The translations under genes and the position numbers were made by a program. From the sequence record NC_054925.1: 64,000 nt of DNA. One strand, written 5' to 3'. The notes beneath the pieces were generated by a model. The model saw only the letters and a list, made by a program, of their open reading frames with translations, had not been told where the DNA came from and made no database searches. Origin of the DNA: Escherichia phage vB_EcoM_NBG2. This document shows positions 39,478 to 64,000 of this stretch, piece by piece; position 1 is the stretch's first letter, and every line of letters starts with the position of its first letter.

Positions 39478-39948
39478 TTAATCATGTGTCCACACCCCAT
39501 CGGTATTTGACCAAAGTCGCTGATTATCTGATCCTCGCCACAGCTTTTTGGTCGGAAGATTTTTCTCATACTTCCCATCAATAATAACATCAACATATTT
39601 AAGCATTTCTAGTTGTTTAATATCTTCAAACTTATATCCTGTCCACAACCAAATGCTTTTATTCGGATAAAGATTTTTTACTGTTTGAACAATGCAATGA
39701 ACAACATCTCGGTTATCAGGATAAAGAGGGTCTCCTCCAGTTATAGTTAATCCTTCTATATAATCATTATTCAAACATTCAATTAATTGTTCTAGCGTTT
39801 CACCAGTGAATGGAACGCCATTTCTAGCATTCCATGTTGATTTATTATAACACCCTTCACATTTATGCAAACAACCTGTAACGAAAAGAACGACCCTGCA
39901 TCCAGGGCCATTCACAAAATCGCAGGGATAAAATCTATCGTAATTCAT
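39478..39948 (-). CDS. nrdG: anaerobic ribonucleotide reductase activating protein NrdG (radical SAM)
   Basis: 156 aa; CLHKCEGC cluster motif. Confidence 0.85.
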   Translation of the reverse strand: MNYDRFYPCDFVNGPGCRVVLFVTGCLHKCEGCYNKSTWNARNGVPFTGETLEQLIECLNNDYIEGLTITGGDPLYPDNRDVVHCIVQTVKNLYPNKSIWLWTGYKFEDIKQLEMLKYVDVIIDGKYEKNLPTKKLWRGSDNQRLWSNTDGVWTHD

Positions 39949-41762
39949 TGGTGTTTAACCCTATGCATGATTTCTTTATTTTTTCCAAGATTAAATCCGC
40001 GTTCATTCGGATTTCCCAAATAACCACAAGTTCTTCTTATGGTGTTCATCTTTTTAGGATCAGTTTCTCCACAAATAGAACAAACAAATCCGTTTTCAGT
40101 AGGAGTCATTTCATGGGTACTTCCGCATGTAAAACATTTATCTACTGGCATATTAACACCAAAATAATCTAAATGTTGTGCAGCATAATCCCATACAGCC
40201 TCAAGACCTTTTAGGTTATTTTTCATATCAGGAAGTTCAACATAAGAAATGTGACCACCTGTCGCAATGAAATGATACGGTGCTTCGCGAGAAATCTTTT
40301 CAAACGGAGTAATATTTTCTTCTACTGAAACGTGGAAACTGTTAGTGTACCAGCCTTTATCGGTAACATCTTTTACACTTCCATATTTTTCGGTATCAAG
40401 TTTACAGAAGCGATAGCACAGATTTTCAGCAGGAGTAGAATACAAACTAAAAGCAAAACCAGTTCTTTCAGTCCACTGCTTAAGATGAGTATTCATTTTA
40501 GTTAAAATTTCCTGTCCAATATCACGACCGACAAGAATATTCAATTCGTGAATACCAATGTATCCTAGGGATACTGAACTTCTACCGTTTTTAAATAACT
40601 CAATTATATCGTCATCAGGTTTAAGACGGACCCCGAATGCACCTTCTTGGTAAAGAATAGGAGCAACAGTAGCTTTAACTCCTTTTAAGGAACTAATTCT
40701 ACACAGCAAAGCTTCAAAACATAAATCCATTCGTTCATTGAACAATTCGGCAAATTTCTGTTCATTGAACTGTGTTCCAATATAAGAATCTAATGCAATA
40801 CGAGGAAGATTCAGTGTTACAACGCCAAGATTATTACGTCCATCAAGAATTTCACTACCAGTCGAATCTTTCCATACACCCAAGAAACTACGGCAACCCA
40901 TTGGAGAAACAGGAATAGATGAACCTGTGATAGCTTTATTGTTCTTAGCCGAAATGATGTCAGGATACATTCTTTTGCTTGCACACTCTAGAGCAAGCTG
41001 CTTAATATCATAGTTCGGGTCGTCTTTATAAAGATTAACACCTTCTTCAACGAACATAACAAGCTTAGGGAAAATAGGAGTTATCCCATCACGACCGAGA
41101 CCTTTAATACGATTTTTCAGAATTGCTTTCTGAATCATTCGTTCAGTCCAGTCAGTTCCCGTGCCAAATGTAATTGTTACAAAAGGCGTTTGTCCGTTTG
41201 AACTAAAGAGAGTATTTACTTCATATTCATAAGCTTGGAATGCATCGTATACATCTTTTTCTGTTTTAGATTGAGCATAATTTAACGCATCAGCGATTTG
41301 CCATTTTTCTGCATCCTCAATATGTTTTGCATAGGTGCGTTTAACATAAGGAGAAAGTACTTTATCTACATTAGCAAAAGTCGTTCCGCCATATTGATGG
41401 GAAGCAACTTGCGCAGTAATTTGTGCCATAATTGCAGTAGCAACGCCAATTGATTTAGGAGTTTCAATCTGCGCATTACCAAGCTTAAATCCGTTCTCAA
41501 GCATTCCTTTTAAATCTACTAAACAGCAATTAGTAAATGGAAGAGCAGGGGAATAATCAATATCATGAAAATGAATAATTCCGCTTTCATGCGCTTTCAT
41601 AATAAAAGACGGGACCATATTTTTGGCAATGTGTTTAGACACAATACCAGCCATAAGGTCCCGTTGAGTTGGAAAAACACGAGAATCTTTATTAGCATTC
41701 TCGTTTAAAAGGTCTTTATTAGTTTTATGAATCAATCCTTCAATTTCTTTTTCAATTGTCAT
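39945..41762 (-). CDS. nrdD: anaerobic ribonucleoside-triphosphate reductase NrdD, intronless
   Basis: 605 aa continuous ORF; glycyl-radical motif RRTCGYLG; C-terminal Zn ribbon. Confidence 0.9.
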   Translation of the reverse strand: MTIEKEIEGLIHKTNKDLLNENANKDSRVFPTQRDLMAGIVSKHIAKNMVPSFIMKAHESGIIHFHDIDYSPALPFTNCCLVDLKGMLENGFKLGNAQIETPKSIGVATAIMAQITAQVASHQYGGTTFANVDKVLSPYVKRTYAKHIEDAEKWQIADALNYAQSKTEKDVYDAFQAYEYEVNTLFSSNGQTPFVTITFGTGTDWTERMIQKAILKNRIKGLGRDGITPIFPKLVMFVEEGVNLYKDDPNYDIKQLALECASKRMYPDIISAKNNKAITGSSIPVSPMGCRSFLGVWKDSTGSEILDGRNNLGVVTLNLPRIALDSYIGTQFNEQKFAELFNERMDLCFEALLCRISSLKGVKATVAPILYQEGAFGVRLKPDDDIIELFKNGRSSVSLGYIGIHELNILVGRDIGQEILTKMNTHLKQWTERTGFAFSLYSTPAENLCYRFCKLDTEKYGSVKDVTDKGWYTNSFHVSVEENITPFEKISREAPYHFIATGGHISYVELPDMKNNLKGLEAVWDYAAQHLDYFGVNMPVDKCFTCGSTHEMTPTENGFVCSICGETDPKKMNTIRRTCGYLGNPNERGFNLGKNKEIMHRVKHQ

Positions 41763-43020: not shown

Positions 43021-43329
43021 TTATAGCGTAATCCATTCTCGTATTGTCTGAGTTACTACACGTTCACGGGGTTCGACTAATTCAACAGTCGGAACTGCAT
43101 AATACCAGTCAGAATGATAAGAACCTGAACGGCATTCATTTACGGAAACATGTACATTATGTTTTGGGCTAAAATAAACACATTGCCGATATTGGCATTT
43201 GCCATCTTGTACCCAGTCTTCTATTTCGATAGGTTTAAGATAATCCGAAAAATCGAAATCATAATTTTCTGAAAATGCATCATGGTCTTCGATTATTTCG
43301 CTCAAAACTGCATCAACATCGTAAATCAT
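43021..43329 (-). CDS. hypothetical protein
   Basis: 102 aa ORF. Confidence 0.5.
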   Translation of the reverse strand: MIYDVDAVLSEIIEDHDAFSENYDFDFSDYLKPIEIEDWVQDGKCQYRQCVYFSPKHNVHVSVNECRSGSYHSDWYYAVPTVELVEPRERVVTQTIREWITL

Positions 43330-43331
43330 AT

Positions 43332-43547
43332 TTACCCCAATTTAACCATGCAATCGCCATATTTCCATTTAGAAATAGACTTTTCACCGTTAGAATAATA
43401 AACTTCGAGTTTAGCGCGGCCATTTTTAATTTGAATAACCTTTGCTGTCATCAAAGTTCCATACCCATAGTAAACTGCAACCTCATCACCCACATATACC
43501 GCGCTTCCGCGGTAGTCATGGATATAATCAGTTCCTTCAAGCATCAT
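43332..43547 (-). CDS. hypothetical protein
   Basis: 71 aa ORF. Confidence 0.5.
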   Translation of the reverse strand: MMLEGTDYIHDYRGSAVYVGDEVAVYYGYGTLMTAKVIQIKNGRAKLEVYYSNGEKSISKWKYGDCMVKLG

Positions 43548-43807
43548 TTAAAGTATTCCCGCAATTGGTCAAATCCACCAATATGACTTCCATCAGGAGC
43601 AAATACCTGAGGCATCGTCAATCCGATTTGAGTATCACGACCCAGTTTAGTCAGAAGCTCAGCGATTTTCTCATCATCAAAAACACCTTTTTCCGGCATA
43701 ATATTGATAAATTCAAACGGCTGTTTCTTCACAGTCAAGAGACGTTTTGCATTATCGCAATACACACATTTGTGGATGTTGCTATCATAACCATATACTT
43801 TAAACAT
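43544..43807 (-). CDS. nrdC: thioredoxin/glutaredoxin NrdC
   Basis: 87 aa; CVYC active-site motif. Confidence 0.8.
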   Translation of the reverse strand: MFKVYGYDSNIHKCVYCDNAKRLLTVKKQPFEFINIMPEKGVFDDEKIAELLTKLGRDTQIGLTMPQVFAPDGSHIGGFDQLREYFK

Positions 43808-50747: not shown

Positions 50748-50781
50748 TTTATTCTCCAAATCCGTATCAGTTGATAGTTGT

Positions 50782-50811
50782 ATAGTACCATAAAGCTTTA
50801 TGCTTGTAAAC
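50782..50811 (-). promoter_or_regulatory. early promoter upstream of P-loop ATPase gene
   Basis: GTTTAC, 18 nt, TGGTACTAT. Confidence 0.55.
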
Positions 50812-50841
50812 AGTTTTGTGAAAAATTTTTGAAATAAAAAA

Positions 50842-50859
50842 GGGAGCCCGAAGGCTCCC
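50842..50859 (-). terminator. hairpin (UUCG loop) preceding early promoter
   Basis: GGGAGCC-CGAA-GGCTCCC. Confidence 0.5.
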
Positions 50860-50862
50860 TTA

Positions 50863-51876
50863 TCATTTATAATAACTTCGGTGGTTTTCAAGATAAACCC
50901 TCTCAAGGAAGTCATCCCAGAAACCCATGTCTACTTTTTGCTGCATACCGTTCTTAGAAGCTTCAATGGATGCTGCTTCTACTTGATCGACCACATCTTC
51001 CAAAAACTCTTGGACAGTTTTAAATGGATGTTTACCCAACTTCACGTCGAGAATAAATGGAGCATCTTGGAGTGGATAAACCAAATCACCAGTTTTGTAA
51101 ATTTCCAATAGTTGGAGTCCACCACGGCAAGCATGACTAAGAGCTTTCCAGTCAATGCCCTCATTCGCTTCAGCCTTACGAGCACGTTCGCCGTATTCAG
51201 CATCTAATTTGTTCAGTGACTGCTTAAGCTCAATAAGAGAAAGCGTTGTCTGATATTTACGACCCAACACAGTATAGAACGTTTGCGGGCCTGTTTTCTC
51301 GTGATTATGGAACACCCATTCACAGAACTCGTTCTCTGGAAGACGATGCTTAATATCTTCAACTTTAGTGCGACGCTGCTTAATGGAACCGTCTTCTTGA
51401 TAATCAACCCACTGATCGGGGATTTGATTAACTACTTTCAATACATCACGCAATGCGGCCAAACGAGAACCCTTAACACCATATTTAGAAGCTTGCTTGC
51501 GAACATATCCTAAATAGGATTTCATGTTAGTTGTATAAAACCGTGAACGATTGTCTTGAATAAACTTCCATACATCAGGCAAATCTGATTTAACTACTAG
51601 TTCAGGTGGAGTGTGGAGCATATCCAATGCTACAGTTTCACCATCTGCTGCTAATTTAAAGAAATACTTAAGACTGTATAGTTCATGGTCAATATCATCT
51701 TTAGTGTTTTTAGATGATGTGTTGTTAGTGTTTTTACTCATATGCTCTTTAACATTTCCGATAAGAATATCGCGAGCAGGAGGAACAAAGATTTCTTTAA
51801 AATCTACATCAGATTCTGGAGTAGAAGTTCCATAAAGATGACTACCAAAATAGCTTTTCATTACTGTTTTCATCAT
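50863..51876 (-). CDS. putative nucleotidyltransferase (Pol-beta-like fold)
   Basis: 337 aa; N-terminal GSHLYGTSTPESDVDF and downstream DMLH acidic residue. Confidence 0.5.
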   Translation of the reverse strand: MMKTVMKSYFGSHLYGTSTPESDVDFKEIFVPPARDILIGNVKEHMSKNTNNTSSKNTKDDIDHELYSLKYFFKLAADGETVALDMLHTPPELVVKSDLPDVWKFIQDNRSRFYTTNMKSYLGYVRKQASKYGVKGSRLAALRDVLKVVNQIPDQWVDYQEDGSIKQRRTKVEDIKHRLPENEFCEWVFHNHEKTGPQTFYTVLGRKYQTTLSLIELKQSLNKLDAEYGERARKAEANEGIDWKALSHACRGGLQLLEIYKTGDLVYPLQDAPFILDVKLGKHPFKTVQEFLEDVVDQVEAASIEASKNGMQQKVDMGFWDDFLERVYLENHRSYYK

Positions 51877-52334
51877 TCAGCCTTATATTCAATAACAGGA
51901 CATACTTTAGCTTTACGAGCTTTTAAAAATTCGACGATAATAGATTTCTTGGGTTGAATAGGAGGTAAACCTTTATACGCCCTATCAATATTTTCTACAT
52001 GTAAAGCATAATCCTTTTTCCATTTATAATCTTTATATTTTTCATGCAGTTGTGCAGGAATAACACATGAACCGATAATAAGTAAAACAAGCAAAATAGC
52101 AAGTATAAATGCTGATGGAATAAGAGTCCATAAACTACCAAAAATAAGCCATTTCTGTATGATTTCTGCACAGATGATAGTTAGACCTGCGAGTATAGTA
52201 CATCCGAAAAAAGAAACGAAAAATGTAGGAATAACAATAGACCAAAAATACGCGCACAGTGTCTTAGGTCGTTTCCATTCATCATTAAACATTTTGAATA
52301 ATTTATAATGCCAAGAGTTTTCATTAATAATCAT
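51873..52334 (-). CDS. membrane protein
   Basis: 153 aa; 3-4 hydrophobic helices. Confidence 0.5.
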   Translation of the reverse strand: MIINENSWHYKLFKMFNDEWKRPKTLCAYFWSIVIPTFFVSFFGCTILAGLTIICAEIIQKWLIFGSLWTLIPSAFILAILLVLLIIGSCVIPAQLHEKYKDYKWKKDYALHVENIDRAYKGLPPIQPKKSIIVEFLKARKAKVCPVIEYKAE

Positions 52335-52336
52335 AA

Positions 52337-52858
52337 TTATCCTTTCATTGAAGGTGTAACAGTTGTTAAATACTTAATCATAGCTTCAGCTTCTGATTTT
52401 GATAATGAAATTTCTCCATTGTTTTGACGAATAGAAATAAAATCCGGATGACGGTCACCACCAGCTTTTAAAACACACATATAAGTATCAGTTTCATCTT
52501 CAATATTTGAAATGATTGAAGCAGTTCCACATGAATGTGGTTTTTGATAAATCAATACAGCTTTTCTTCCACCGTTTGACTGTTCATAAACTTTTAACAC
52601 ATCAAACAAATCACTTCTTTTATCAATAGCTAAGATGTTGTTTTCATCTTCAATGTTAAATCCTTCGGATACTTCATAAAGCGTTACCCATAAATCACCT
52701 ATATCGATAGTAGCATTTTCCTTTCCATGACTTTCAAGAGCATGACAAATTTTCTTGATTTCATCATAACTCATTTTAATAATATCATCTCCTTGAATAA
52801 GGAAGATGTCATTTTTAAATTCAACACGAATTAAACCGCTTCCACTTGAAATAAACAT
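52337..52858 (-). CDS. hypothetical protein, paralog of 52865-53431
   Basis: 173 aa; C-terminal SKSEAEAMIKYLTTVTPSM resembles TKDEAIALKTYLDSVIPTM of neighbour. Confidence 0.5.
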   Translation of the reverse strand: MFISSGSGLIRVEFKNDIFLIQGDDIIKMSYDEIKKICHALESHGKENATIDIGDLWVTLYEVSEGFNIEDENNILAIDKRSDLFDVLKVYEQSNGGRKAVLIYQKPHSCGTASIISNIEDETDTYMCVLKAGGDRHPDFISIRQNNGEISLSKSEAEAMIKYLTTVTPSMKG

Positions 52859-52864
52859 ATTTCC

Positions 52865-53431
52865 TCACTTTGAAATCATAGTTGGAATGACAGAATCAAG
52901 ATAAGTCTTTAGCGCAATAGCTTCGTCTTTTGTAAATGTAACAATATGTGCTCGAAAATCGTCAATTTGGCGAATAGTTAAGACATCTCCTTCTTCATAA
53001 CATTTTGATACATTTAAAACAGTTTCATCATTCTGATCGCACTGATCGCAAGCGTTAGTAATAATAGCATTGCAATTTTTGAGCCATTTTAAACTATGTT
53101 TTCTTTCATTAGAATAATAAAAATATTTAATCTTAGCTATAAAACTATCCCAATGGATAACTGATAAACACATTGACTCACTTTTAATATTAAATCCTGG
53201 GCATGAAGAATAAAAATGAATTTTGTGCTCATCATTGATGCTTACTATTTTATCAGTATAAGGATATTCAATTTGGATTAAATGAACGATTTCACTAGGC
53301 GTAAAATATAGCATATCGTCTTCTTGCGTCAAACGATACATGTTATTTACTTTTTCTATAGCCAATTCACCAAAAAGCGGACTAACTTCTAATACTAATC
53401 GTTTCATATTGATTCTCTTCGACTCACTCAC
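52865..53431 (-). CDS. hypothetical protein, paralog of 52337-52858
   Basis: 188 aa; shared C-terminal motif. Confidence 0.5.
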   Translation of the reverse strand: MSESKRINMKRLVLEVSPLFGELAIEKVNNMYRLTQEDDMLYFTPSEIVHLIQIEYPYTDKIVSINDEHKIHFYSSCPGFNIKSESMCLSVIHWDSFIAKIKYFYYSNERKHSLKWLKNCNAIITNACDQCDQNDETVLNVSKCYEEGDVLTIRQIDDFRAHIVTFTKDEAIALKTYLDSVIPTMISK

Positions 53432-53566
53432 AATTACATACTCCTTTGAATAATATCAATAATGTTGTTCACCAGATTATAAGTAAACATTGGGTAATTA
53501 TATTGAATCATCACATACACAACAAACAAAACTTTCATTCTCTTCTCCTTGACCGTTGACAAGATT

Positions 53567-53596
53567 ACTATACCATAACCTTGTCAACTTGTAAAC
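53567..53596 (-). promoter_or_regulatory. early promoter
   Basis: GTTTAC, 18 nt, TGGTATAGT. Confidence 0.5.
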
Positions 53597-53761
53597 CATT
53601 AAATGACGTTTTCAATAAAATTCTGAAGCTTTGTGTGAGCATCAACCATAATTTTCATTTCTTCCTTTGCGAAAGCTGTACCTCTTTCCCGAGCAGAATA
53701 CTCATAGTCAGAAACTGCATTAGCATATTCTTCAATTAGCTTCATTAAAAACATTTGCTTT

Positions 53762-53956
53762 TCAGTTTTCATTATTCCACCTAATCATTTCAAGATATTG
53801 AACTAACTTAGCTTTGGATTTATCCAAATCCTTTTTAGCTGCTTCTATACCGTCGTATGAATATCCTTCACAGTGCTCAACTGCCAATTGATATGAATCT
53901 ATTTCAATATCACGTGCTAATTTAATGATTTTTTCAAACTGTTCACGTGTTAGCAT
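53762..53956 (-). CDS. hypothetical protein
   Basis: 64 aa ORF. Confidence 0.4.
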   Translation of the reverse strand: MLTREQFEKIIKLARDIEIDSYQLAVEHCEGYSYDGIEAAKKDLDKSKAKLVQYLEMIRWNNEN

Positions 53957-53958
53957 AA

Positions 53959-54198
53959 TTAAACTCTCGTATTATGATCGATAATTTCATCAAGAAACAT
54001 ATCTAACGCTTCTAAAGCATTATCAACTTTAGCTTCAAATTTTTCAATACCTTTATTTGCAATGCCTGCCGAAAACCAAGCAAAGTCACTAAGTTCCTCA
54101 TCTGCTTTGCGAATTAAAGCTACCAATTCTTTAATTTTATCTGCTTGTTCAATTCTAGTCATTATTCCACCACATATGAAAGAGAGAATATTGCACAC
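53959..54198 (-). CDS. hypothetical protein
   Basis: 79 aa ORF. Confidence 0.4.
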
Positions 54199-54350
54199 GC
54201 CATATGAGTTGCAGCTTCATCACACATATCATAACGTTTCTTAAGAAGTTCTACAAGTTCTTCACTAGTAACTTCATCCATGTCGACGAAAAAATCACCA
54301 TTAATGATGACGTAGATATTTCCTTCTTGATTAAGTGCTTCAATTTTCAT
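54162..54350 (-). CDS. hypothetical protein
   Basis: Trimmed to M16 with GAGGAG SD; 62 aa. Confidence 0.4.
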
Positions 54351-54378
54351 GATGTTCTCCTCTTTATCCGATAGTTGT

Positions 54379-54408
54379 ATAGTATCACAGCTCAAATGGA
54401 AAGTAAAC
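54379..54408 (-). promoter_or_regulatory. early promoter
   Basis: GTTTAC, 18 nt, TGATACTAT. Confidence 0.5.
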
Positions 54409-54423
54409 CGGTAAAATGAAAAA

Positions 54424-54441
54424 AGTCTCCCGAAGGAGACT
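54424..54441 (-). terminator. hairpin (UUCG loop) preceding early promoter
   Basis: AGTCTCC-CGAA-GGAGACT. Confidence 0.5.
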
Positions 54442-54445
54442 AATG

Positions 54446-54832
54446 TTATTCGAGGGAAAGAAGATATTTACTCTGGTAAAACATCCCAGTAATATCATCT
54501 ATCGTGCTTTGAATGGCTGGAGGCATTTCTTTATAAATGCTGTTAGATTGGTCTAGTATGCGATCAATCATTTTAATTGTGTCAGTAGGAAGTTTACTGG
54601 CATCTGGAATAGAAGGCGTGTATTTTCTACCAGAATACCCCAAATATTGCTCACCAAATTTATCAATCAAATCTGGCAACTCAGAGAAAATAAAATCGTA
54701 TGCTTTGTGTCTAGCATAACTTTTAGTTTCAAAATGCGCAGAATGAAAATAAGCTTGTGTAGCCATTAATAAACCTAAGTATTCATCTGCCTTTGAAGGT
54801 TTTCCACTTTGTGAAAAGTCGCTGAATTTCAT
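54446..54832 (-). CDS. hypothetical protein
   Basis: 128 aa ORF upstream of rI. Confidence 0.5.
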
Positions 54833-55122
54833 TCAGTCTCCAATTTAATGTTCATAATTCTAGCGTATGATTGTGCCATCTCCGCGCCTCGCTCTATACA
54901 TTCAAAATCGGAAGAGCACGGGTCATTTTTATAAGTCGTTCGCATAAAACTATAGAACTGTTCAGATGATTCTACGCTTTTGTTTTCAAAAAGCATATAA
55001 ACGTGTCTAATACCAGATTCCATAAATTTATCAAAATGAGGATCGACATTCGCTTCAATTGGTGGAGATAAAGCAAACGCTAATCCTAGCATGGCAAATA
55101 GTGCCGTTGCTTTTAAGGCCAT
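54829..55122 (-). CDS. rI: lysis-inhibition regulator rI (periplasmic)
   Basis: 97 aa; N-terminal signal-anchor MALKATALFAMLGLAFALSPPIEA; size and position next to tk. Confidence 0.7.
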   Translation of the reverse strand: MALKATALFAMLGLAFALSPPIEANVDPHFDKFMESGIRHVYMLFENKSVESSEQFYSFMRTTYKNDPCSSDFECIERGAEMAQSYARIMNIKLETE

Positions 55123-55134
55123 AAAGGCCTCCTA

Positions 55135-55347
55135 TCATTTTTGTCCTGTATTTACTTTATGCCGATGCACGGCCTTAACTTTATCAAGGTATTTTTCAAA
55201 ATTTCGCAATCTAGTATAGTCTGCCGGAGATTGGTTGAGTGATACTTCTCGACGCAAAGCTGAAATGATATTTCCAACTTCCCTACGAATTTCATCTAAT
55301 TGAAGCACAGTAAGATTGCGAAGTTGCTTTTCAGTTAATTGTAGCAT
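55135..55347 (-). CDS. hypothetical protein
   Basis: 70 aa; TATAAATA-like late promoter upstream. Confidence 0.45.
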
Positions 55348-55372
55348 ATATACCCCTTTAGTTAGATAAACC

Positions 55373-55380
55373 TATTTATA
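55373..55380 (-). promoter_or_regulatory. late promoter TATAAATA upstream of rI-region genes
   Basis: exact TATAAATA on minus strand. Confidence 0.4.
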
Positions 55381-55389
55381 ACTTTTGCA

Positions 55390-55971
55390 CTAACCGAGCT
55401 TTTTAGTTAATTCATTCCAATGTTTTCTACACAAAGAAACATAAATTTCATCACCAATACAGATTTGATTACCTTCTTTAACTGGTGTTCCATCTTCCGT
55501 TAATCGAGCTGTCATAATCGCTTTTTTACCGCAATGACAAACCGCCTTTAGTTCAATAAGTTTATCTGCAATCGCTAAAAGTTCTTTAGAACCTTCAAAC
55601 AATTTTCCAGCGAAATCAGTCCTTAATCCATAAGCCATAACAGGAACATTATATGTATCAACAATTCGACTTAATTGATGCACCTGTTCAGTTTTTAAAA
55701 ACTGAGCTTCATCTACAAATACGCAATGAATATCTTTTTGTGCTTCAGCCCATTTATAGAACTCGAAAATATCCATATCATCTGTAATAATATTTGCTTC
55801 CTGCCTAATTCCAATGCGAGAAACGACTTCACAGACAGAATCGCGAGTATCAATAGCAGGCTTAAGAACTAATACACTCATTCCACGTTCTTTATAATTA
55901 TGTGCAGCAGTCAAAAGAGAAGCAGATTTTCCAGCATTCATTGCTGCATAAGTAAAAATTAAACTCGCCAT
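55390..55971 (-). CDS. tk: thymidine kinase
   Basis: 193 aa; P-loop AAMNAGKS; C-terminal Zn-binding Cys pairs. Confidence 0.85.
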   Translation of the reverse strand: MASLIFTYAAMNAGKSASLLTAAHNYKERGMSVLVLKPAIDTRDSVCEVVSRIGIRQEANIITDDMDIFEFYKWAEAQKDIHCVFVDEAQFLKTEQVHQLSRIVDTYNVPVMAYGLRTDFAGKLFEGSKELLAIADKLIELKAVCHCGKKAIMTARLTEDGTPVKEGNQICIGDEIYVSLCRKHWNELTKKLG

Positions 55972-55980
55972 ATCACCTTC

Positions 55981-56166
55981 TTAAAGCGTATTCACATAAG
56001 CTATTAATTCATTTTCTTTCTTATCAAACCGATCAGCAAATTCTTCCTGCTGTTCGGGAGATAACGGGCCGTATTCATCATAAAAGGTGTTTGCTTCTGT
56101 ATGCTCATCTAGAAGTTCATGGATAAGCTCAAATAATTTATCTTTTTGTTCTTTACTCAGACTCAT
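55981..56166 (-). CDS. hypothetical acidic protein
   Basis: 61 aa ORF. Confidence 0.45.
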   Translation of the reverse strand: MSLSKEQKDKLFELIHELLDEHTEANTFYDEYGPLSPEQQEEFADRFDKKENELIAYVNTL

Positions 56167-56336
56167 ATATTAATTTCCAAAAGTTTTAAAATAATTCGCT
56201 TTTGCTTAAATATTTCCACAGTTAAATGATCAGTATCTTTTTGACCGATTCCAATGGCAAAACCTTTATTAACAGCGAGTTCAATTAAATTATCAAGCTC
56301 ACGTAACACTTCGTATTGTAACTCAGAACTATTCAT
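56163..56336 (-). CDS. small hypothetical ORF (57 aa)
   Basis: hand-translated; ATGA overlaps at both ends; coordinates anchored to flanking track ORFs. Confidence 0.35.
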   Translation of the reverse strand: MNSSELQYEVLRELDNLIELAVNKGFAIGIGQKDTDHLTVEIFKQKRIILKLLEINI

Positions 56337-56539
56337 TTCGGTTTACCTTCTTTAACGAAATCTGAATAAGGATAAAATCCCGAATAAAATCCTTCACCTT
56401 TATGATTGATGCATCCTTTATTAGAACAATAGCACCAATAATCGAAATCACAAACCATTTCATCGTTGCATAAAGCAAAAACAACCGGCCACTTACACTT
56501 TTCACAATGGGCATTTTTAAGAATACTAGTTTGGCTCAT
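56333..56539 (-). CDS. Cys-rich small protein
   Basis: Trimmed to M8 (ATGA overlap with upstream stop); many Cys (CEKC, CNDEMVCDFDYWCYC). Confidence 0.4.
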   Translation of the reverse strand: MSQTSILKNAHCEKCKWPVVFALCNDEMVCDFDYWCYCSNKGCINHKGEGFYSGFYPYSDFVKEGKPK

Positions 56540-56763
56540 AACCATGTCACCTTCAAGCAATATTCTTCTACGTGCTGTTTGCGACCTTTCTTATCAATAA
56601 AGGTATATTCAACGAATGTTCCAATGTAGTCTTTATCTACATCATGTAGGCTATTAATTGGGCATTTAGTACGGCAAATGCGTTCCCATTGACGAATAAT
56701 TACTGCCTTATTCTTTGGGTCATATGGATGTGGATAATGTATATTCATAATAACGGTTCCCAA
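56536..56763 (-). CDS. hypothetical protein
   Basis: 75 aa ORF (TTG start in track). Confidence 0.4.
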   Translation of the reverse strand: MGTVIMNIHYPHPYDPKNKAVIIRQWERICRTKCPINSLHDVDKDYIGTFVEYTFIDKKGRKQHVEEYCLKVTWL

Positions 56764-57212
56764 TCAACAATCACAATTTCTAATTTAGAGGAATATGTAT
56801 CTAAAATCCCCTCAATAATATCCCAGTTCCCTTTACCTATGCCTGCACCAATCCTAGGCATATAGATTGTAGGTTTAATCAGTTTATTTTCACCAAACTC
56901 ATTTAATTCTAACATACAATTCATTAAAGCGGAATACTCAAAATTTGGCCCTGGTTGAAATTGAGTATAAAGATTAAAGCAGTAAGCTTTATGAGTCCTA
57001 AAGTATTTTTCATAAACTGAGTAAGAACCAAGTTTAGTTACATCACCCCATTCAGTCTGTAATTTATCAGCTTCCAAAATTTTAGGGAAAGCTTTAGTTA
57101 ATTGACCCGCTACGCCTGAACCCATAGTATGAAAACAATTGCATCCATGCGCAATATTTTTACCTTCAGCGAAAAGGGCGACAATATCGCCCTTGATATA
57201 TTTTACAATCAT
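56745..57212 (-). CDS. macro-domain protein (ADP-ribose binding/processing)
   Basis: 155 aa; N-terminal IKGDIV...AHGCNCFHTMGSGVAGQL resembles macro-domain glycine-rich site. Confidence 0.55.
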   Translation of the reverse strand: MIVKYIKGDIVALFAEGKNIAHGCNCFHTMGSGVAGQLTKAFPKILEADKLQTEWGDVTKLGSYSVYEKYFRTHKAYCFNLYTQFQPGPNFEYSALMNCMLELNEFGENKLIKPTIYMPRIGAGIGKGNWDIIEGILDTYSSKLEIVIVDWEPLL

Positions 57213-57550
57213 CTAGTACTCAATCCTCGATTATAAGAATCTACCAAACGGTCAACCATTGAATGACAAGCGGCTTTATCTTTCTCCTCCGCAACTGAAC
57301 ATTCTAAGGTATTCCACTTTTTAGCATATCGTTTTAATAATGTATCGTTTTTGTATCTGCTTGATTTATCTCTTTCTCCGTCTTTATATGCATATATTAA
57401 TTTCTGTGCAAATTCAGCTTGGCATGCTTTATTTTTCCCACAATAATCTGCCGCAGTGCGGTTTACATATTCTCTAATTTCAGTATATGATGTATCTGCT
57501 GACGCAGAAAATGAAATTAATCCTATACATAAAACCAAAATTTTAGTCAT
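57209..57550 (-). CDS. secreted hypothetical protein
   Basis: 113 aa; signal peptide MTKILVLCIGLISFSASA. Confidence 0.5.
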   Translation of the reverse strand: MTKILVLCIGLISFSASADTSYTEIREYVNRTAADYCGKNKACQAEFAQKLIYAYKDGERDKSSRYKNDTLLKRYAKKWNTLECSVAEEKDKAACHSMVDRLVDSYNRGLSTR

Positions 57551-58088
57551 TTACTATTTCCAAAAGTTTATTATTTTTAAGGTAATTAGCCTTTTCTAGG
57601 ACTTCAGAAGCATATTTAGAACCTGCTTTAACATTCCATCCCGAATTATAAGAGGATATTGCTTTTCTTATATCGCCCTTATGTATATTTAACCAATAAG
57701 AAAGTTCAATGTACGCCCAGGAAGCTGAATTGGACCGTTTATTCAACATTCTTTTTATTTCAGCATCGGTCATATTATAACCAAGTTCCTTAACTCTTGC
57801 TCGCATAGTAGGCAAATAATTTTGGAACATTCCATAAGCGTGATGCTTTGGTTTAGATTTTAAATTAACTCCGCCAGAGCTTTCTTGCCATAAAATAGCA
57901 GCCATTATATGACCTAATCCGCTCTTGTGGATATTTTTGTGTGTTTTATATTTTCCATCCTTAGAAAATTGTTCCCCGAATTGATACGCGTAACGCATGT
58001 TATCGAGTTGGACATTACTGAAAGTATGCTCGGAGCTATGTGCCATCATTGAAATGGCCAATAGACCAGCGAGTAGTGCTTTTCTCAT
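57543..58088 (-). CDS. SLT-domain lytic transglycosylase-like protein, secreted
   Basis: 181 aa; signal peptide; QESSGG...AYGMFQ resembles the ES-GLMQ motif. Confidence 0.55.
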   Translation of the reverse strand: MRKALLAGLLAISMMAHSSEHTFSNVQLDNMRYAYQFGEQFSKDGKYKTHKNIHKSGLGHIMAAILWQESSGGVNLKSKPKHHAYGMFQNYLPTMRARVKELGYNMTDAEIKRMLNKRSNSASWAYIELSYWLNIHKGDIRKAISSYNSGWNVKAGSKYASEVLEKANYLKNNKLLEIVND

Positions 58089-58095
58089 GCTTACC

Positions 58096-58557
58096 TCATT
58101 GAGTTTTAATTACTGCTTTAGAAGCCTTTCCTGGTAAACGACGACTATTGATAATTGCCATCCTGCATTGAAGCGACGGGTCTTTGAACTTCGCATTAGG
58201 TTTACAAACTGTAAATCCAAGCCAAAGATTTCCATCTGTGATTTCTAAACGTCCAGGACGGTATTCAACCCCATCAATAAAATCCTCATCAATGTCAGGA
58301 CGCGGAGGCATACTCAGGAATTCATTAACTTCTAAAACATGGTCTTTTATTTTGTGGAATAATTCAAAAACATATGTCTCATCAATCTCCCGTTGAATTG
58401 CACGATCAAGAAGATGCTGAGAATATTTTAGATGAAACGATGAGACCCCTGCTGCTTTTGATGCCTCACGAATCTCATTGTTAATTTGACGAAACTCCGA
58501 CTCAAAATGACGACGAAGCTTATTTCGACGGATAAAAACTTCTGTATTGATAGTCAT
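58096..58557 (-). CDS. regB: endoribonuclease RegB
   Basis: 153 aa; size and position as T4 RegB; early promoter upstream. Confidence 0.75.
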   Translation of the reverse strand: MTINTEVFIRRNKLRRHFESEFRQINNEIREASKAAGVSSFHLKYSQHLLDRAIQREIDETYVFELFHKIKDHVLEVNEFLSMPPRPDIDEDFIDGVEYRPGRLEITDGNLWLGFTVCKPNAKFKDPSLQCRMAIINSRRLPGKASKAVIKTQ

Positions 58558-58584
58558 GTTGTTCTCCTCTTAACTGATAGAAAA

Positions 58585-58614
58585 ATTATACCACAGTCAA
58601 GAGGAAAAGTAAAC
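58585..58614 (-). promoter_or_regulatory. early promoter upstream of regB
   Basis: GTTTAC, 18 nt, TGGTATAAT. Confidence 0.55.
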
Positions 58615-58616
58615 AG

Positions 58617-58895
58617 TTATTCTTTAAATCTAATCAATTTATTCATAGACTTTGAAACTTCTGCACGAACCTCATGTAGATTTTTGAGCTGTTCAAGACG
58701 CTGCGTATAGTAAGCAATTTCATCTTCTTCGAGACAGTCCTGTGAATCTTCTTTAAGATACCGTGCATAGTCCTGGAAAGCGTTACGGACTACTTCCTGG
58801 AAGTCATCAAGACTTTGAATTTTCTTAGGAGCAGCAGACACACGACGAGGGGCAGTATAATACTCATAACCAAACCCTGCGCTTAATTGAGCCAT
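58617..58895 (-). CDS. hypothetical protein
   Basis: Trimmed to M15 (TAATG coupling); 92 aa. Confidence 0.45.
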
Positions 58896-59161
58896 TAGTA
58901 TTTTTCCTCTGGTTGGAACACAGCACGACAAGCCCACATACTGGCTTCTTTGAGTTTCGTTTTAGCAATAGCTAACTGATCGAGGCTTTCAGCATAATTC
59001 TTCGCGAGTTCAAAGTCTTCGCAATTATCTAGTGCTTCCCAGAATTCATCATATAAAGCATCAAAGATAAGTCCTAAACGAACTTCAGCGTCTTTAATAG
59101 CATTTACTTTACCGATTTTTTCGTCGGTATGTGGCTTATAACCTTTAATATCTTCAATCAT
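58895..59161 (-). CDS. hypothetical protein
   Basis: Trimmed to M13; 88 aa. Confidence 0.4.
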
Positions 59162-59375
59162 ATTTGACTTCCTCACCAGTACATAAATCGTATTCAACTA
59201 AACGAATAGGTTCATGAATGCCATATCCTTGAACAGAAATTTCTGTCGTAGGATAAATTCCATTAATATCACCCATGTTCCATGCTTCGTTAAATTGCTG
59301 TTCGCCTGAATTACTAAACCACTCGGCGAAAGCATTTAGCACATCTTCAGAACCTTCAATAATTATCTTTGCCAT
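59154..59375 (-). CDS. hypothetical acidic protein
   Basis: 73 aa ORF. Confidence 0.45.
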   Translation of the reverse strand: MAKIIIEGSEDVLNAFAEWFSNSGEQQFNEAWNMGDINGIYPTTEISVQGYGIHEPIRLVEYDLCTGEEVKYD

Positions 59376-59737
59376 TACAAACTCTCGGTGAAGGTACGAG
59401 CGATAACGTCGCGCTGCTGTTCCGGAGTCAGAGAGTTAAAGCGAACTGCATAACCGGATACACGGATGGTCAGCTGCGGATATTTTTCCGGATGCTTAAC
59501 TGCATCTTCCAGAGTTTCACGACGCAGAACGTTAACGTTCAGGTGTTGACCACCTTCAATTTTAACTGTAGGCTGTTGCTCAATTTCAATTTCACGGGCA
59601 TGCAAACCATAGAAAATTTCTGGGTCTACAAAAGAGTCCTCTTTAAAGGTTTTAGAGACAATAATTCGTGCTTGAATACCATCTTCAAAATAAATAGTAC
59701 CTTTATGTGTGCCTTCAAGAATTTGATATGCTTTCAT
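59375..59737 (-). CDS. autonomous glycyl-radical cofactor (GrcA/YfiD-like)
   Basis: 120 aa; C-terminal [28 protein letters not shown] glycyl-radical motif; coding DNA visibly more GC-rich than neighbours. Confidence 0.7.
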
Positions 59738-59743
59738 ATAACC

Positions 59744-60073
59744 TCAATTAGAAAATAAATTTATCCAAGATTGTTCTTTAATTAAAAATGGCTCAGAATC
59801 ATATGCCATTAAACTCTGTGTGATTAGTCCTTTAAAAGGCCCATCAATAAATTCCATGGTAAAATATGGAATTTTATTCATTAGCCGTGCATTAGGAGCC
59901 GTGCACAAAACTCTGCATCCTTTGAATACGCCTTTTTGTAATTTGTATTGCTTGGGATAAAATTCGCTCAAAATGTTATTTTTTGCCAAAATTTCAAAAT
60001 GATTCACCAATTTATTTTTAATAGTTTTTGGCGAAAAATAAAGATATTCGAAAAGCTGAGTGTCTGTCATCAT
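59744..60073 (-). CDS. hypothetical protein
   Basis: Trimmed to M18 (ATGA coupling); 109 aa. Confidence 0.4.
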   Translation of the reverse strand: MMTDTQLFEYLYFSPKTIKNKLVNHFEILAKNNILSEFYPKQYKLQKGVFKGCRVLCTAPNARLMNKIPYFTMEFIDGPFKGLITQSLMAYDSEPFLIKEQSWINLFSN

Positions 60074-60657
60074 TGCATTCCGATTACGAAAAACTGTGGA
60101 CGAGTAATACCACCAATGCAACATTTAATATTACAGCAGCAGTGTACAGTGTCAATATGGACACTATAAATCTTATCCATATCAGGAGATTTGACAGGCT
60201 CATCAATTATATACAAAATTCGCGAAAGCGATAAACCTCTGAACTTACTTCCTTTATTACCGATAAAACTGCGCACAGAATCAGTAAATAAACGAAAACG
60301 TATATCATCATTAGAATAACGCGAAAATTCCTTTTTGATGTTATTTGCAGAAATTTTAGCGTAAGCTGAAGTATTAGAAAGAACAATAACTGTTCCACCG
60401 TCATACAACCAATTAGCGGCAAAATTAGTTACTGCAGTTGATTTACCAGATTGACGCCCACCATCTAGTCGAAGTGTACAATACTGCTTAAGTAAGTCTT
60501 CAAATGGTGGGATATAATCGTTTTTACAAATTTCTTCTACTCTAGCATCAGAATGGTGTGTAAAAGCATTCATCAGGGATAGATAAGGACCAGTTAAAAA
60601 TGTTCTCATTTTATTCTCTCTAAATTTGGGCCATTCCATGGCGCATGAATTGTCCAT
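60070..60657 (-). CDS. hypothetical protein with P-loop-like motif
   Basis: 195 aa; GGRQSGKST Walker-A-like and ILYIIDEP; start uncertain. Confidence 0.45.
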   Translation of the reverse strand: MDNSCAMEWPKFRENKMRTFLTGPYLSLMNAFTHHSDARVEEICKNDYIPPFEDLLKQYCTLRLDGGRQSGKSTAVTNFAANWLYDGGTVIVLSNTSAYAKISANNIKKEFSRYSNDDIRFRLFTDSVRSFIGNKGSKFRGLSLSRILYIIDEPVKSPDMDKIYSVHIDTVHCCCNIKCCIGGITRPQFFVIGMQ

Positions 60658-60762
60658 TTCTGTATTTACCCATTACCGCACTCAGGCTCGACCTTATTAC
60701 AGGTTGGCGGGAATCCCTCATAGAATCATGAGGTCCAGTTTGTTCCCATATTTCTTATTTGC

Positions 60763-61236
60763 TTATTTGAACGATTTAACGTACTGAATAGAACCTTTAC
60801 TATTTACAAAGGCAATTTTACCATTTTTATTATACATTGTAGCAGTACGTTGATAGCCATAAGTTTGTTTACCAGATTGATAACCAACTAATGCAAAATT
60901 ATCTTCACCCATTTTATTCTGTTTAGCGCGAATGCGTTCATGACCATGTGCCATAAGAACCTTAGCATCACCAGTTGCAATGGATCGACGAGTTTTTTCA
61001 TCTTCAACTGTATTAACAAAGTCGTCAAATGAATCAAATTTAGCATGAGATTTATTATACAGTTTTCCATCTACTGCATAATTATATCCCTGTACATCCA
61101 TCTCAACTTCTGTACCATCATCCAATACAGCAGTAATTTTTTGACCTTTTTTAAATTTCAAAAGATCAGTAAAAGATTCAGCGATAATTTGAGAATTAAT
61201 AGCTGCTTCAGTGATAAATTCTTGATATGTTTTCAT
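60763..61236 (-). CDS. internal protein with capsid targeting sequence
   Basis: 157 aa; N-terminal MKTYQEFITEA matches the T4 IP targeting sequence as recalled; immediately upstream of gene e. Confidence 0.65.
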   Translation of the reverse strand: MKTYQEFITEAAINSQIIAESFTDLLKFKKGQKITAVLDDGTEVEMDVQGYNYAVDGKLYNKSHAKFDSFDDFVNTVEDEKTRRSIATGDAKVLMAHGHERIRAKQNKMGEDNFALVGYQSGKQTYGYQRTATMYNKNGKIAFVNSKGSIQYVKSFK

Positions 61237-61290
61237 ATGTTTCCTTTAAATATTTTAATTAGTAATTTGTCTCTTCAAGCAACTGTGAAT

Positions 61291-61320
61291 ATACTATCAC
61301 AATTCTAGGAGAAAGTAAAC
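61291..61320 (-). promoter_or_regulatory. early promoter upstream of internal-protein gene
   Basis: GTTTAC, 18 nt, TGATAGTAT. Confidence 0.5.
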
Positions 61321-61324
61321 AACT

Positions 61325-62293
<969 letters not shown>

Positions 62294-62312
<19 letters not shown>

Positions 62313-62782
62313 TCAGTGATAAAGTTATTTAAATTTTGAGTATATTTCTTTTCATCAAAAATCTTTTGTTGTCTGCGTAAACGCCATGGCATTTCAATGA
62401 ACATACGCCATATTCCTGATAATACTGCTGCTGTAAAAATATTAACAAGTATAGTTAAAAGAACCCAATCTCCTATTCTGTCCATTGGATTTTTTATAAA
62501 AAAGTAAAATACGAACGATGATATAGGAAGACTAATGATATACCACAGAAGAACCTTCTTATCTGTGAACCAATCAGCATTCGTTAACTTAGCGCGACCG
62601 TTTTGAATACATACGAACTTATCATCTGTTACAGTAAATGGCTTAGCTGCTTGATATCCCATTCTAAACTCCCTAATTAATCGTTTCTTTGTATCTTCAG
62701 AACAACCATTCCAGTCAACTCTATCAACTGGAATGCCATCATCCCCATCATCTAAATCATACCAGCGAGTTTTTAAAATCAT
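62294..62782 (-). CDS. small membrane protein, paralog family (C-terminal CRK motif)
   Basis: 162 aa; TM helices; C-terminus FITECRKLK. Confidence 0.5.
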
Positions 62783-63141
62783 TTAATTTTCCTACAATCA
62801 CTCACAAACTCTTTCATTGACTCATTTTCAATATAAGACATGTAGCTATTATATTCCTTTAATTGTATTTTGTAATCCTTTTTTCTTTGCCAATTTATTT
62901 TAAAATTATCATAATGAAAATATAAAATGATACCAAAGAATGAAAACAATGAAATAATTTTAGTATAACAAAGCTCATTCCAAACTTCTGTTATATTTAC
63001 TGTGCCGTCGATGTTTAAAATAAGACAGTCAATTAACAATCCAAAAAGACTACCCGCAAGAGCTGCAGCCAACGCCACAGCAAAAATTAAAAATGACTCA
63101 GAAAACGAATATTTGACTTTATTTAGTTTTGGCTTTTGCAT
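62779..63141 (-). CDS. small membrane protein, paralog family
   Basis: 120 aa; C-terminus FVSDCRKIK. Confidence 0.5.
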   Translation of the reverse strand: MQKPKLNKVKYSFSESFLIFAVALAAALAGSLFGLLIDCLILNIDGTVNITEVWNELCYTKIISLFSFFGIILYFHYDNFKINWQRKKDYKIQLKEYNSYMSYIENESMKEFVSDCRKIK

Positions 63142-63536
63142 CGTGATTCCTTAACAAATTTCATAATTTCATTAAATTCATACTCAGCAAGTTTAAGCTG
63201 GTGTTCCTTTTTAATCTTTTTACACTGAGCTTTCCAATCGTGTACACGTTTACGATAATGTCTTCCTTGATACCAGTATCCTACCCAATTTACGGGTACT
63301 AATAAAAGTGGAACTACCAATGGAAGAATTAGCATTAACACAAGTATTTCGCCAGAATCAATATCAGTCATAACATCTAAAACACCTCCAATAATCAATA
63401 GAATTACAAATGATATAAGTATAACAGGACCTATTAATACATCAGTAGAAATTATCTGGTGCTTTGATTCATACTTCAAAGGTTTACTTGGAAGGTATAG
63501 TGATGGTTTTGACATATTCTCTACATTCCTTAACAA
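63123..63536 (-). CDS. small membrane protein, paralog family
   Basis: 137 aa; C-terminus FVKESRCKSQN. Confidence 0.5.
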   Translation of the reverse strand: MLRNVENMSKPSLYLPSKPLKYESKHQIISTDVLIGPVILISFVILLIIGGVLDVMTDIDSGEILVLMLILPLVVPLLLVPVNWVGYWYQGRHYRKRVHDWKAQCKKIKKEHQLKLAEYEFNEIMKFVKESRCKSQN

Positions 63537-63867
63537 ATTTTTCTAATAATAAATCGCTTTCAAAATTGGGATTTTCCACGAATTTATCAAAAAGATCATC
63601 AACAATAGTTAAGATATTCTTTTTACTAAGAATACGCTTATTTTCATGCTTCGTTTCAGAATCAACTATAAGAGTAAAGAAATATTTCTTGCCCTGAAAT
63701 TTTACAGTAGTATCAATATAGAATAAATTTGACTTTTGTAAATTACGTTTAAACCATGCGTCACTTAAACTATAAACACCGAGATAATCATAATCGTCGT
63801 TTAAATAACATACTGTCCATTCAGGAGAAATGAAATCAGTAAATTCAACATCAAAATCACGCGTCAA
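63484..63867 (-). CDS. hypothetical protein
   Basis: 127 aa; C-terminal KFVKECREYVK; start probably internal. Confidence 0.4.
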   Translation of the reverse strand: MTRDFDVEFTDFISPEWTVCYLNDDYDYLGVYSLSDAWFKRNLQKSNLFYIDTTVKFQGKKYFFTLIVDSETKHENKRILSKKNILTIVDDLFDKFVENPNFESDLLLEKFVKECREYVKTITIPSK

Positions 63868-64000
63868 TGAATGAATTGATTCAATACTGTTAATAAGTAT
63901 TCCAGGACGTATTAAAGACTTTTTACCTCTGGAAAATCTTCCAGAAAGACTTTCATCAGTTTCATATGAAGAACCCCAATAATAATTACGTCCTTCTGCC
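63867..64000 (-). CDS. partial ORF running off the window end (C-terminal part only)
   Basis: open minus-strand frame to the window edge; no track entry. Confidence 0.3.

Follow-up and report, generated by a model that had tools for sequence, protein, structure and literature searches.

The vs.6 gene of Escherichia phage vB_EcoM_NBG2 (sequence record NC_054925.1), located in the stretch of 64,000 nt analyzed here (the window), is a mosaic: within one reading frame, both the nearest relative and the base composition switch sharply. We consider it likely, at roughly four chances in five, that vs.6 is an ancient phage homologue of the bacterial autonomous glycyl radical cofactor GrcA (YfiD), that its radical domain has been overwritten, probably repeatedly, by homologous recombination with the grcA gene of the host, and that its product acts as a spare part for pyruvate formate-lyase (PFL). 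A preliminary description of the window, made from the sequence alone, had regarded the gene as GC-rich DNA consistent with capture from an enterobacterial host, and had treated compositional anomaly and deep phage phylogeny as alternatives. Both turn out to be true, one for each half of the gene.

According to the list of open reading frames (ORFs) of the window, vs.6 runs from ATG to TAA on the minus strand and encodes 120 residues (Table 1). As the preliminary description had stated, the protein ends in a PFL-type glycyl-radical domain and is of the GrcA/YfiD type: Pfam Gly_radical (PF01228) matches it with E = 2.5e-18 (score 67 bits, cut-off 22.2), and the best solved structure is E. coli YfiD/GrcA (6OWR, E = 9e-42; HMMER/phmmer), followed by residues 697-759 of PFL, with which phage residues 58-120 align at E = 5e-26 (50 of 63 residues identical, by alignment count). 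Residues 61-120 are identical to E. coli GrcA. Gly95 of the radical loop (59453-59455) corresponds to PFL Gly734, at which the radical is carried and cleavage occurs (PMC8683613), and to GrcA Gly102, the latter by counting along the alignment to the 127-residue GrcA.

The gene can be assigned to a known group. The region 58900-60700 is 99.2% identical to several Tequatrovirus genomes, and the gene order vs.8, vs.7, vs.6, vs.5, vs.4, regB, vs.1, vs is common to the window, T4, RB3, and CM8. The protein carries the phage-type N-terminal half (MKAYQILEG...ARIIVSKT...) and shares 118 of 120 residues with T4 ORF 63.1 (X04567; the same as vs.6 and Y06I), the differences being Q54 (P in T4) and R73 (H in T4); the two genes lie at the same locus between vs.7 and vs.5 and are 98.3% identical in DNA. 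On the strength of this synteny, the type of N-terminal half, and the 98% identity, the window can be placed in Tequatrovirus and the gene taken as the orthologue of T4 vs.6/Y06I. Both gene and biochemical role are already known, at textbook level for T4 specialists. The labels "vs.6" or "autonomous glycyl radical cofactor" are present across hundreds of phage records, and Tequatrovirus records label this ORF either "autonomous glycyl radical cofactor" or "pyruvate formate-lyase". The latter is a misnomer for phage proteins of 120 residues, because they align solely with the last ~63 residues of PFL and of other glycyl-radical enzymes. Indeed, the protein is not a full-length PFL or other glycyl-radical enzyme (~750-850 residues), and its scores against these enzymes lie far below the family cut-offs.

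The evidence for a host-derived segment comes from comparison with 5,426 complete E. coli genomes. In blastn searches with vs.6, grcA was matched in every one of these genomes, but through gene nt 179-363 only; the 5′ 178 nt found no DNA match in any of them. The longest exact match spans 169 consecutive bases (window 59391-59559), and identity to grcA drops sharply upstream of it. A 165-nt core of this block matches grcA at 165/165 positions, and 5,156 E. coli records contain it at 99% identity or more. Furthermore, the block is the sole megablast match of the whole window to the same genomes, with none in 1-50000 and vs.6 alone in 50001-64000; nrdD, nrdG, and tk thus carry no host-identical DNA. 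The block covers GrcA residues ~67-122, and since its residues match GrcA, the donor is grcA and not pflB. Immediately downstream, in the tail of the gene, the window reads TTC ACC GAG AGT TTG where E. coli reads TTT ACT GAA AGC CTG, five synonymous differences at positions 59390, 59387, 59384, 59381, and 59380. In T4, the gene is host-like through codon 118, whereas the window is phage-like from codon 116.

Phylogeny and site patterns point the same way. In a neighbor-joining (NJ) tree of the block (all our trees are NJ trees on short alignments), the E. coli T-even phages nest inside Escherichia with a bootstrap of 0.98, and their blocks differ from E. coli at 0-6 of 165 positions and from other genera at 13 or more. 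A triplet comparison of the window with a phage parent (Klebsiella phage Lion_ER11) and a host parent (E. coli) gave 66 phage-like and 16 host-like informative sites in the 5′ part, whereas the block had 0 and 23 (Fisher p = 4e-13). When Karamvirus took the place of the phage parent, the ratio went from 57:8 in the 5′ part to 0:38 in the block (p = 1e-20).

Could such identity arise without recombination, through extreme purifying selection or convergence? Bacteria and phages do show almost no variation in the 60 residues encoded here, as this explanation would need. However, the identity extends to synonymous sites: third codon positions of the block differ at 0/55 from E. coli, 13/55 from Citrobacter, and 26/55 from Salmonella. 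Because these bacterial orthologues encode the same or nearly the same peptide, protein-level selection cannot explain the identity. Across all orthologues of the same or near-same peptide, 13-28 of 55 third positions differ; the near-same Karamvirus peptide is encoded with 38-40 differences; and 169 straight identities at a per-site identity of 85% have a chance of ~1e-12. The synonymous-site data thus effectively refute an origin without recombination, to which we give next to no credence.

Composition follows the same partition. Taken whole, vs.6 has a GC content of 0.416, whereas that of the window is 0.343; with z = 2.3, the gene ranks among the richest 1.5% of windows of 363 nt. The preliminary description had noticed the excess, but it is confined to the 3′ half. 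The 5′ part (nt 1-180) has a GC content of 0.33 and a GC content at third codon positions (GC3) of 0.20, like the ORFs of the window (mean GC3 0.24) and its flanks; the 165-nt block has a GC content of 0.51 and a GC3 of 0.44 (top 1.3% among windows of 55 codons), and the richest 186-nt window of the entire 64 kb is 59369-59554 (GC 0.50). In Karamvirus phages, which lack a host copy, the same segment encodes nearly the same peptide at a GC content of 0.39-0.42 and a GC3 of 0.18-0.25. Amino-acid composition therefore explains part of the rise, and the remainder is codon choice. Annotators should bear in mind that "host-like GC" may be confined to a patch smaller than the phage gene in which it is noticed. 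Another high-GC3 window, in "ORF 43275-43586", was discarded: this is the sole plus-strand ORF in the list, and its minus-strand translation contains six stop codons.

The 5′ half of vs.6 belongs to the phages. Its product is 25-28% identical to any of 17 bacterial GrcA proteins (~28% to that of E. coli), as against 98% to T4 and RB3, 88-90% to Mosigvirus and Carettavirus, 72% to a Klebsiella T4-like phage, and 70% to Karamvirus. Identity decreases further to 53-57% in Slopekvirus and Pseudotevenvirus, 45% in a jumbo phage, and 33% in T5. An NJ tree of the N-terminal halves recovers the T4-like genera in their taxonomic order and keeps all bacterial sequences together in a tight clade; it is incongruent with the block tree. 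The gene was present in six of six diverse T4-like genomes (PMC1524935). Together, these data identify the N-terminal half as an ancient, vertically inherited phage version of the GrcA N terminus. The N-terminal halves of vs.6 and E. coli GrcA can still be aligned on their own (36% identical over 39 residues, E = 1e-5; BLASTP), and the phmmer alignment to 6OWR begins at residue 22. Because the first 59 residues retain recognizable homology to the GrcA N terminus, the gene is a full-length GrcA homologue and not a fusion to an unrelated sequence.

These results dispose of the idea, to which the preliminary description leads, that the whole gene is a recent, unameliorated capture of host grcA. 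The elevated GC content of the gene and the identity of its C-terminal 60 residues to E. coli GrcA agree with capture, and for nt 179-347 of the 363 nt, all 169 of which equal E. coli grcA, capture from an enterobacterial host, specifically E. coli and at a very recent date, stands. It fails for the 5′ half and hence for the gene as a whole: the 5′ 178 nt lack an E. coli DNA match and have a phage-like GC3, the N-terminal half is far closer to other phage genera than to E. coli, and the gene is conserved across divergent T4-like phages. Likewise, the block groups within Escherichia, but the 5′ half lies deep among phages. The partitioned analysis of the two halves thus refutes whole-gene capture, which we regard as very improbable. 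A related observation concerns a 19-kb viral-classed contig (L125, IMG/VR_UViG_2706794630_000006), which carries a full-length bacterial-type GrcA gene differing from Yersinia grcA at 15/165 positions; either the contig is host DNA that was binned as viral, or it records the capture of a whole gene, as the preliminary description had envisaged.

A second donor is found in the Klebsiella T4-like phages, which are ~87% identical to E. coli grcA across the block region. In these phages, the block begins at the same codon as in the E. coli group and again ends within the last ~6 codons of the gene. Informative sites shift from 70:16 to 1:19 across the junction (p = 1.5e-10), the clade has a bootstrap of 0.885, and the GC3 of the block is 0.64, like that of Klebsiella, next to 0.25 in the adjoining 5′ part. 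A metagenome scan with a Klebsiella-type GrcA retrieved bacterial contigs (L177-L180) that encode full-length GrcA with Ung upstream at a GC content of 0.53. Their grcA block differs from that of Lion_ER11 at 5/165 positions, from IMG/VR contig L122 at 3/165, and from E. coli at 23/165, whereas grcA of a Klebsiella metagenome-assembled genome (L039) reaches only 90-92% identity to the phage collection. Given a shared, vertically inherited 5′ half and two donor types, two phage lineages carry blocks copied from two different hosts. On sequence grounds, the donor is in each case the host infected, namely E. coli for Tequatrovirus, Mosigvirus, and Carettavirus, and a Klebsiella-type bacterium for the Klebsiella T4-like phages. 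A chromosomal-type grcA also occurs on a plasmid-labeled replicon of Klebsiella sp. WOUb02 ("plasmid unnamed4", 275 kb; L037), which may be a chromid, or else misassembled or mislabeled.

Identity in itself does not reveal which way the DNA moved, and E. coli and Klebsiella could in principle have received the 3′ half of grcA from phages; we found nothing that specifically favors such a reverse transfer. Against it, the branching of grcA among bacteria follows their taxonomy, with the phage blocks placed within the Escherichia and Klebsiella-type clades. Furthermore, the GC3 of the block matches each host and not the phage. It is also within the phage gene that the identity breaks off, and not within the bacterial gene, whose 5′ halves group in a single tight clade. 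Transfer from phage to bacterium is thus highly improbable.

How often has the block been acquired? Across the phage collection, 637 records contain a block with 95% or higher identity to E. coli grcA, beginning at grcA nt 199-202 and ending at nt 369-384. The block is near-universal in vs.6 genes of the Tequatrovirus, Mosigvirus, and Carettavirus types (647 records at least 90% identical over the whole gene, 644 at least 90% identical over the block). When the window is compared with Carettavirus phiE142, 18/180 sites of the 5′ part differ and 12/54 codons are changed synonymously, as against 0/165 and 0/55 in the block (p = 1e-4), which dates the block as younger than the split of these phage genera. 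The 3′ end of the tract varies, with at least seven tail haplotypes in 12 E. coli T-even sequences, in a graded series from phage-like (the window) to host-like (T4, in which just the last two codons differ). The RB3 block matches an allele found in 1,734 E. coli genomes at 164/165 positions and the allele that the window matches perfectly at 163/165; the two sites at which it varies are also polymorphic among E. coli-like alleles from metagenomes (L206 and L196).

The simplest rival to recurrence is that host DNA replaced the phage segment just once in the line leading to the E. coli T-even phages and once in the Klebsiella group, with low divergence maintained by phage-phage recombination and purifying selection. 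The near-universal presence of the block and its uniform start in all ~640 E. coli-type records are what such a history would leave, as are the Mosigvirus blocks described below. On the other hand, the undiverged block shared by the window and phiE142 lies beside a 5′ part that differs by 10% right up to the junction, so that phage-phage exchange would have to stop exactly at the block edges. The multiple 3′ endpoints, the closer relation of the RB3 block to a different common E. coli allele, and the perfect 165/165 match of the window, phiE142, and several IMG/VR copies to living E. coli also argue against a single replacement. We therefore judge the single-replacement history unlikely, though by no means negligible, and consider recurrent host-templated conversion within the E. 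coli group rather likely. The stronger proposal is that the block is held identical to the current host GrcA by ongoing host-templated conversion and not by selection on point mutations, with each T4-like lineage repeatedly overwriting it while inheriting the N-terminal half vertically; this we favor by a narrow margin over its negation.

Several observations weigh against recurrent conversion or limit its reach. Mosigvirus blocks carry 5-6 private differences, and their best match to any E. coli allele is 97.0%, which indicates that not every lineage undergoes continuous conversion. All E. coli T-even and Klebsiella phages share the same 5′ junction, which could also reflect a few ancestral events, one founding event, or simply the point where usable homology stops. 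The count of tail haplotypes is based on 12 sequences, and the recombination pathway, like its direction, is deduced from phylogeny and composition. Among 161 bacterial sequences, no near-identical host block was found for Slopekvirus, Pseudotevenvirus, Karamvirus, Cronobacter phage S13, Aeromonas phages, T5-like phages, the jumbo phage Yen9-04, or several IMG/VR clades; the nearest of these sequences differ from their blocks at 21-46 of 165 positions, and either old events or unsampled donors would account for this.

Some of these more distant homologues differ in the ends of their proteins. In T5 (L015, 320-688), Karamvirus (L009, L010), S13 (L013), and Aeromonas phage Riv-10 (L014), the homologues end in ...RTFTQAM, ...RTFTKEM, ...RTFTEAM, or ...RTFTQSL. 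These non-T-even endings are closer to RTFTQSM of PflB than to RTFTESL of GrcA, and the T5-like phages also have NALTREQQ; the radical domains of these homologues may descend from donors of the pflB type and not the grcA type. Viral-classed IMG/VR contigs (L166-L170 and L172-L176) contain ORFs of 125-185 residues, much longer than GrcA, that resemble the last ~125-185 residues of a full PFL (…TPDGRRAGAPFGPGANPMHGRD…EGGQHLN…). They may be pieces of bacterial pflB on contigs wrongly classed as viral, or else a spare part of a larger type. The block of one of them, L170, has a 101-nt exact run in common with a bacterial grcA-type sequence (L209).

T-even phages are recombination proficient, and T4 degrades the DNA of its host. 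In the mechanism that we propose, T-even phages would recombine the block with fragments of the host chromosome by gene conversion, with the local host as donor. The near-invariant peptide keeps phage and host DNA at least ~73% identical across the segment even in diverged pairs, and would thereby provide a substrate for homologous recombination; once the block had become identical, further conversion would be easier. Upstream, the tract could not reach beyond codon 60/61 because phage-host homology ends there. Downstream, it would have to end ahead of the stop codon, which overlaps the start of vs.5 (TAATG), and also within the stretch that the T4 record X04567 annotates as a potential ribosome-binding site for the next ORF. 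This annotated site lies inside the tail, and the GAA-to-GAG change of the window falls within it.

What the protein does is best understood from its relatives. Only two PFL spare parts have been validated biochemically, Y06I and E. coli YfiD (PMC8683613). PFL activase was reported to install a glycyl radical on both, and both to restore activity to PFL that has been cleaved by oxygen at Gly734 (Wagner et al., 2001, as cited in PMC8683613). In YfiD, residues 1-60 are disordered and promote both binding to cleaved PFL and radical installation, and residues 61-127 form a folded copy of PFL residues 693-759 (PMC8683613). By this comparison, the copied block of vs.6 corresponds to the folded radical domain and the phage-specific part to the binding half. 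The host radical-SAM activase PflA would install the radical on Gly95, and the C-terminal domain would replace the oxygen-severed C terminus of host PflB (cut at Gly734), restoring production of acetyl-CoA and formate. That the vs.6 product itself rescues PFL is inferred from its 98-100% identity to the validated proteins. A phage copy would sustain PFL fermentation in a microaerobic or anaerobic gut host after host expression has been shut off, alongside NrdD and NrdG. The preliminary description had also connected the gene with NrdD and NrdG, both of which are present in the window.

Family membership is less straightforward. The protein has the features of GrcA/YfiD (TIGR04365/IPR011140), being stand-alone, ~14 kDa in size, equipped with the RVSGYAV-loop domain, and homologous in its N-terminal half. 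Two points nevertheless count against a simple equation with GrcA at work in infection. The NCBIfam TIGR04365 score is 154.9 bits (residues 20-120), below the 170-bit equivalog cut-off (E. coli GrcA scores 233.9), a shortfall that the diverged N-terminal half explains; and we found no experiment in the readable literature showing that vs.6 matters during infection. By its sequence, vs.6 is best described as a phage subfamily of GrcA, neither an equivalog nor a pyruvate formate-lyase.

A different role was proposed by Nolan et al. (2006), who suggested a function in nucleotide metabolism from the shared Gly_radical domain (PMC1524935), and on this reading vs.6 would serve the phage NrdD, or nucleotide metabolism, and not host PFL. 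The presence of NrdD and NrdG in the window fits this proposal, as does the Yersinia jumbo phage fHe-Yen9-04 (L016, 1-828; 354 kb), in which a homologue lies two genes downstream of the nrdD large subunit. However, the radical domain of vs.6 is identical to that of GrcA and close to PFL 697-759, with other glycyl-radical enzymes scoring far lower, and Y06I was shown to reconstitute cleaved PFL (PMC8683613). In the window, moreover, vs.6 is 17.6 kb from nrdD and nrdG, which lie outside the vs.6 unit. A role in nucleotide metabolism is thus improbable, and rescue of host PFL remains our preferred function.

Comparison with known systems brings out what is particular to vs.6. It resembles E. coli GrcA/YfiD (P68066; 6OWR; TIGR04365) as a stand-alone protein of similar mass with an identical C-terminal domain, the same 169 nt, and weak N-terminal homology, but it is seven residues shorter and is encoded in the phage early region, not at the host grcA locus. 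With the C-terminal domain of PflB (~693-759) it shares the fold element and the RVSGYAV radical loop, but it lacks the barrel, including the Cys418/419 pair, and therefore cannot be an enzyme by itself.

Mosaic host/phage photosynthesis genes of marine cyanophages were reportedly described by Zeidner in 2005. The psbA and psbD genes of cyanophages show patchy %G+C and signatures of intragenic host-phage recombination (Sullivan et al., 2006, PMC1484495). Like them, vs.6 is an auxiliary metabolic gene of T4-like phages with patchy %G+C and signatures of intragenic host-phage recombination. Unlike them, it contains a single sharp block that is 100% identical to a living host allele and matches a protein domain; this block recurs at the same position with two host genera, and its direction is unambiguous. 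A block of this type was not found described for an enterobacterial T-even phage or a glycyl-radical protein in the searchable literature. Nor did the literature search find the vs.6/grcA mosaic described, although earlier notice is possible, as Wagner et al. (2001) and the T4 genome review lay outside its coverage. What is possibly new is the anatomy of the gene: a domain-sized, host-identical block (169/169), the sole one across 64 kb, in a phage whose infection destroys the DNA of its host.

If conversion is ongoing, the block would be a datable record of recent host use that can be read from the phage genome, and the T-even phages, usually seen as devoid of host DNA homology, would carry a standing recombination hotspot with the host chromosome. 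If it is recurrent, vs.6 would offer a clean and tractable case of host-to-virulent-phage gene conversion in the best-developed system of phage genetics, for which marked alleles and mutants in uvsX or genes 46/47 are usable. It would also be a natural experiment on the two halves of a spare part, in which the catalytic domain must equal that of the host and the N-terminal binding half is free to become phage specific.

Table 1. Features of vs.6 and of related genes in the window
Feature	Position	Strand	Basis
vs.6/Y06I coding sequence, 120 aa	59375..59737	-	ORF list, Pfam Gly_radical, T4 identity
5′ part, gene nt 1-178, aa 1-59/60; old AT-rich phage-lineage N-terminal half	59560..59737	-	Composition, tree
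Host-identical block, gene nt 179-347, aa ~60-116; encodes the folded glycyl-radical domain	59391..59559	-	grcA alignment
Glycyl-radical motif R92-V-S-G95-Y-A-V98	59444..59464	-	Translation, HMMER alignments to 6OWR and PFL 697-759
3′ tail: codon 116 third base, codons 117-120, stop; phage-specific	59375..59390	-	Alignments
Shine-Dalgarno-like GAGG, 4 nt upstream of vs.6 ATG	59742..59745	-	Read from sequence
vs.5, downstream gene; start overlaps vs.6 stop by 1 nt	59154..59375	-	ORF list, synteny with RB3/CM8/T4
nrdD, anaerobic ribonucleotide reductase	39945..41762	-	Pfam NRDD (E = 1.8e-170) and Gly_radical
nrdG, activase	39478..39948	-	Fer4_12 and Radical_SAM domains

A plus-strand ORF antisense to vs.6 (59369..59758, 129 residues) has neither family nor other support and was rejected as an artefact of the coding strand. 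A scan of 58500-61400 for promoters and terminators gave 12 and 2 candidates against shuffled expectations of 10.3 and 1.7, which is not above chance, and no transcription unit was drawn from it.

The neighbors of vs.6 in the window carry Acb2/Tad1 hairpin (vs.4), REGB_T4, SLT, and Macro domains. Two genes downstream, vs.4 (58895..59197, minus strand) matches the Pfam Acb2/Tad1 hairpin family at E = 2e-20, and its counterpart in a related phage record is labeled "anti-CBASS protein 2"; by this match, an anti-defense gene adjoins the metabolic gene. On the other side, the ORFs of vs.7 (59744..60124) and vs.8 (60070..60657), both on the minus strand, overlap by 55 nt as listed. Because T4 and RB3 annotate vs.7 from a downstream start, giving 109 and not 126 residues, the long form of vs.7 is probably a first-ATG artefact. 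Between vs.8 and the lysozyme gene e, the window encodes a 157-residue DUF7412 protein (60763..61236, minus strand; E = 6e-96), at a position where CM8, 99% identical up to ~60700, has endonuclease V (denV); one gene seems to have replaced another here, in a variable region. Finally, tk.4 (56745..57212, minus strand) contains a Macro domain (E = 3e-6) and vs.1 (57543..58088, minus strand) an SLT lytic transglycosylase domain (E = 1e-5), both in agreement with earlier remarks on these genes (PMC1524935).

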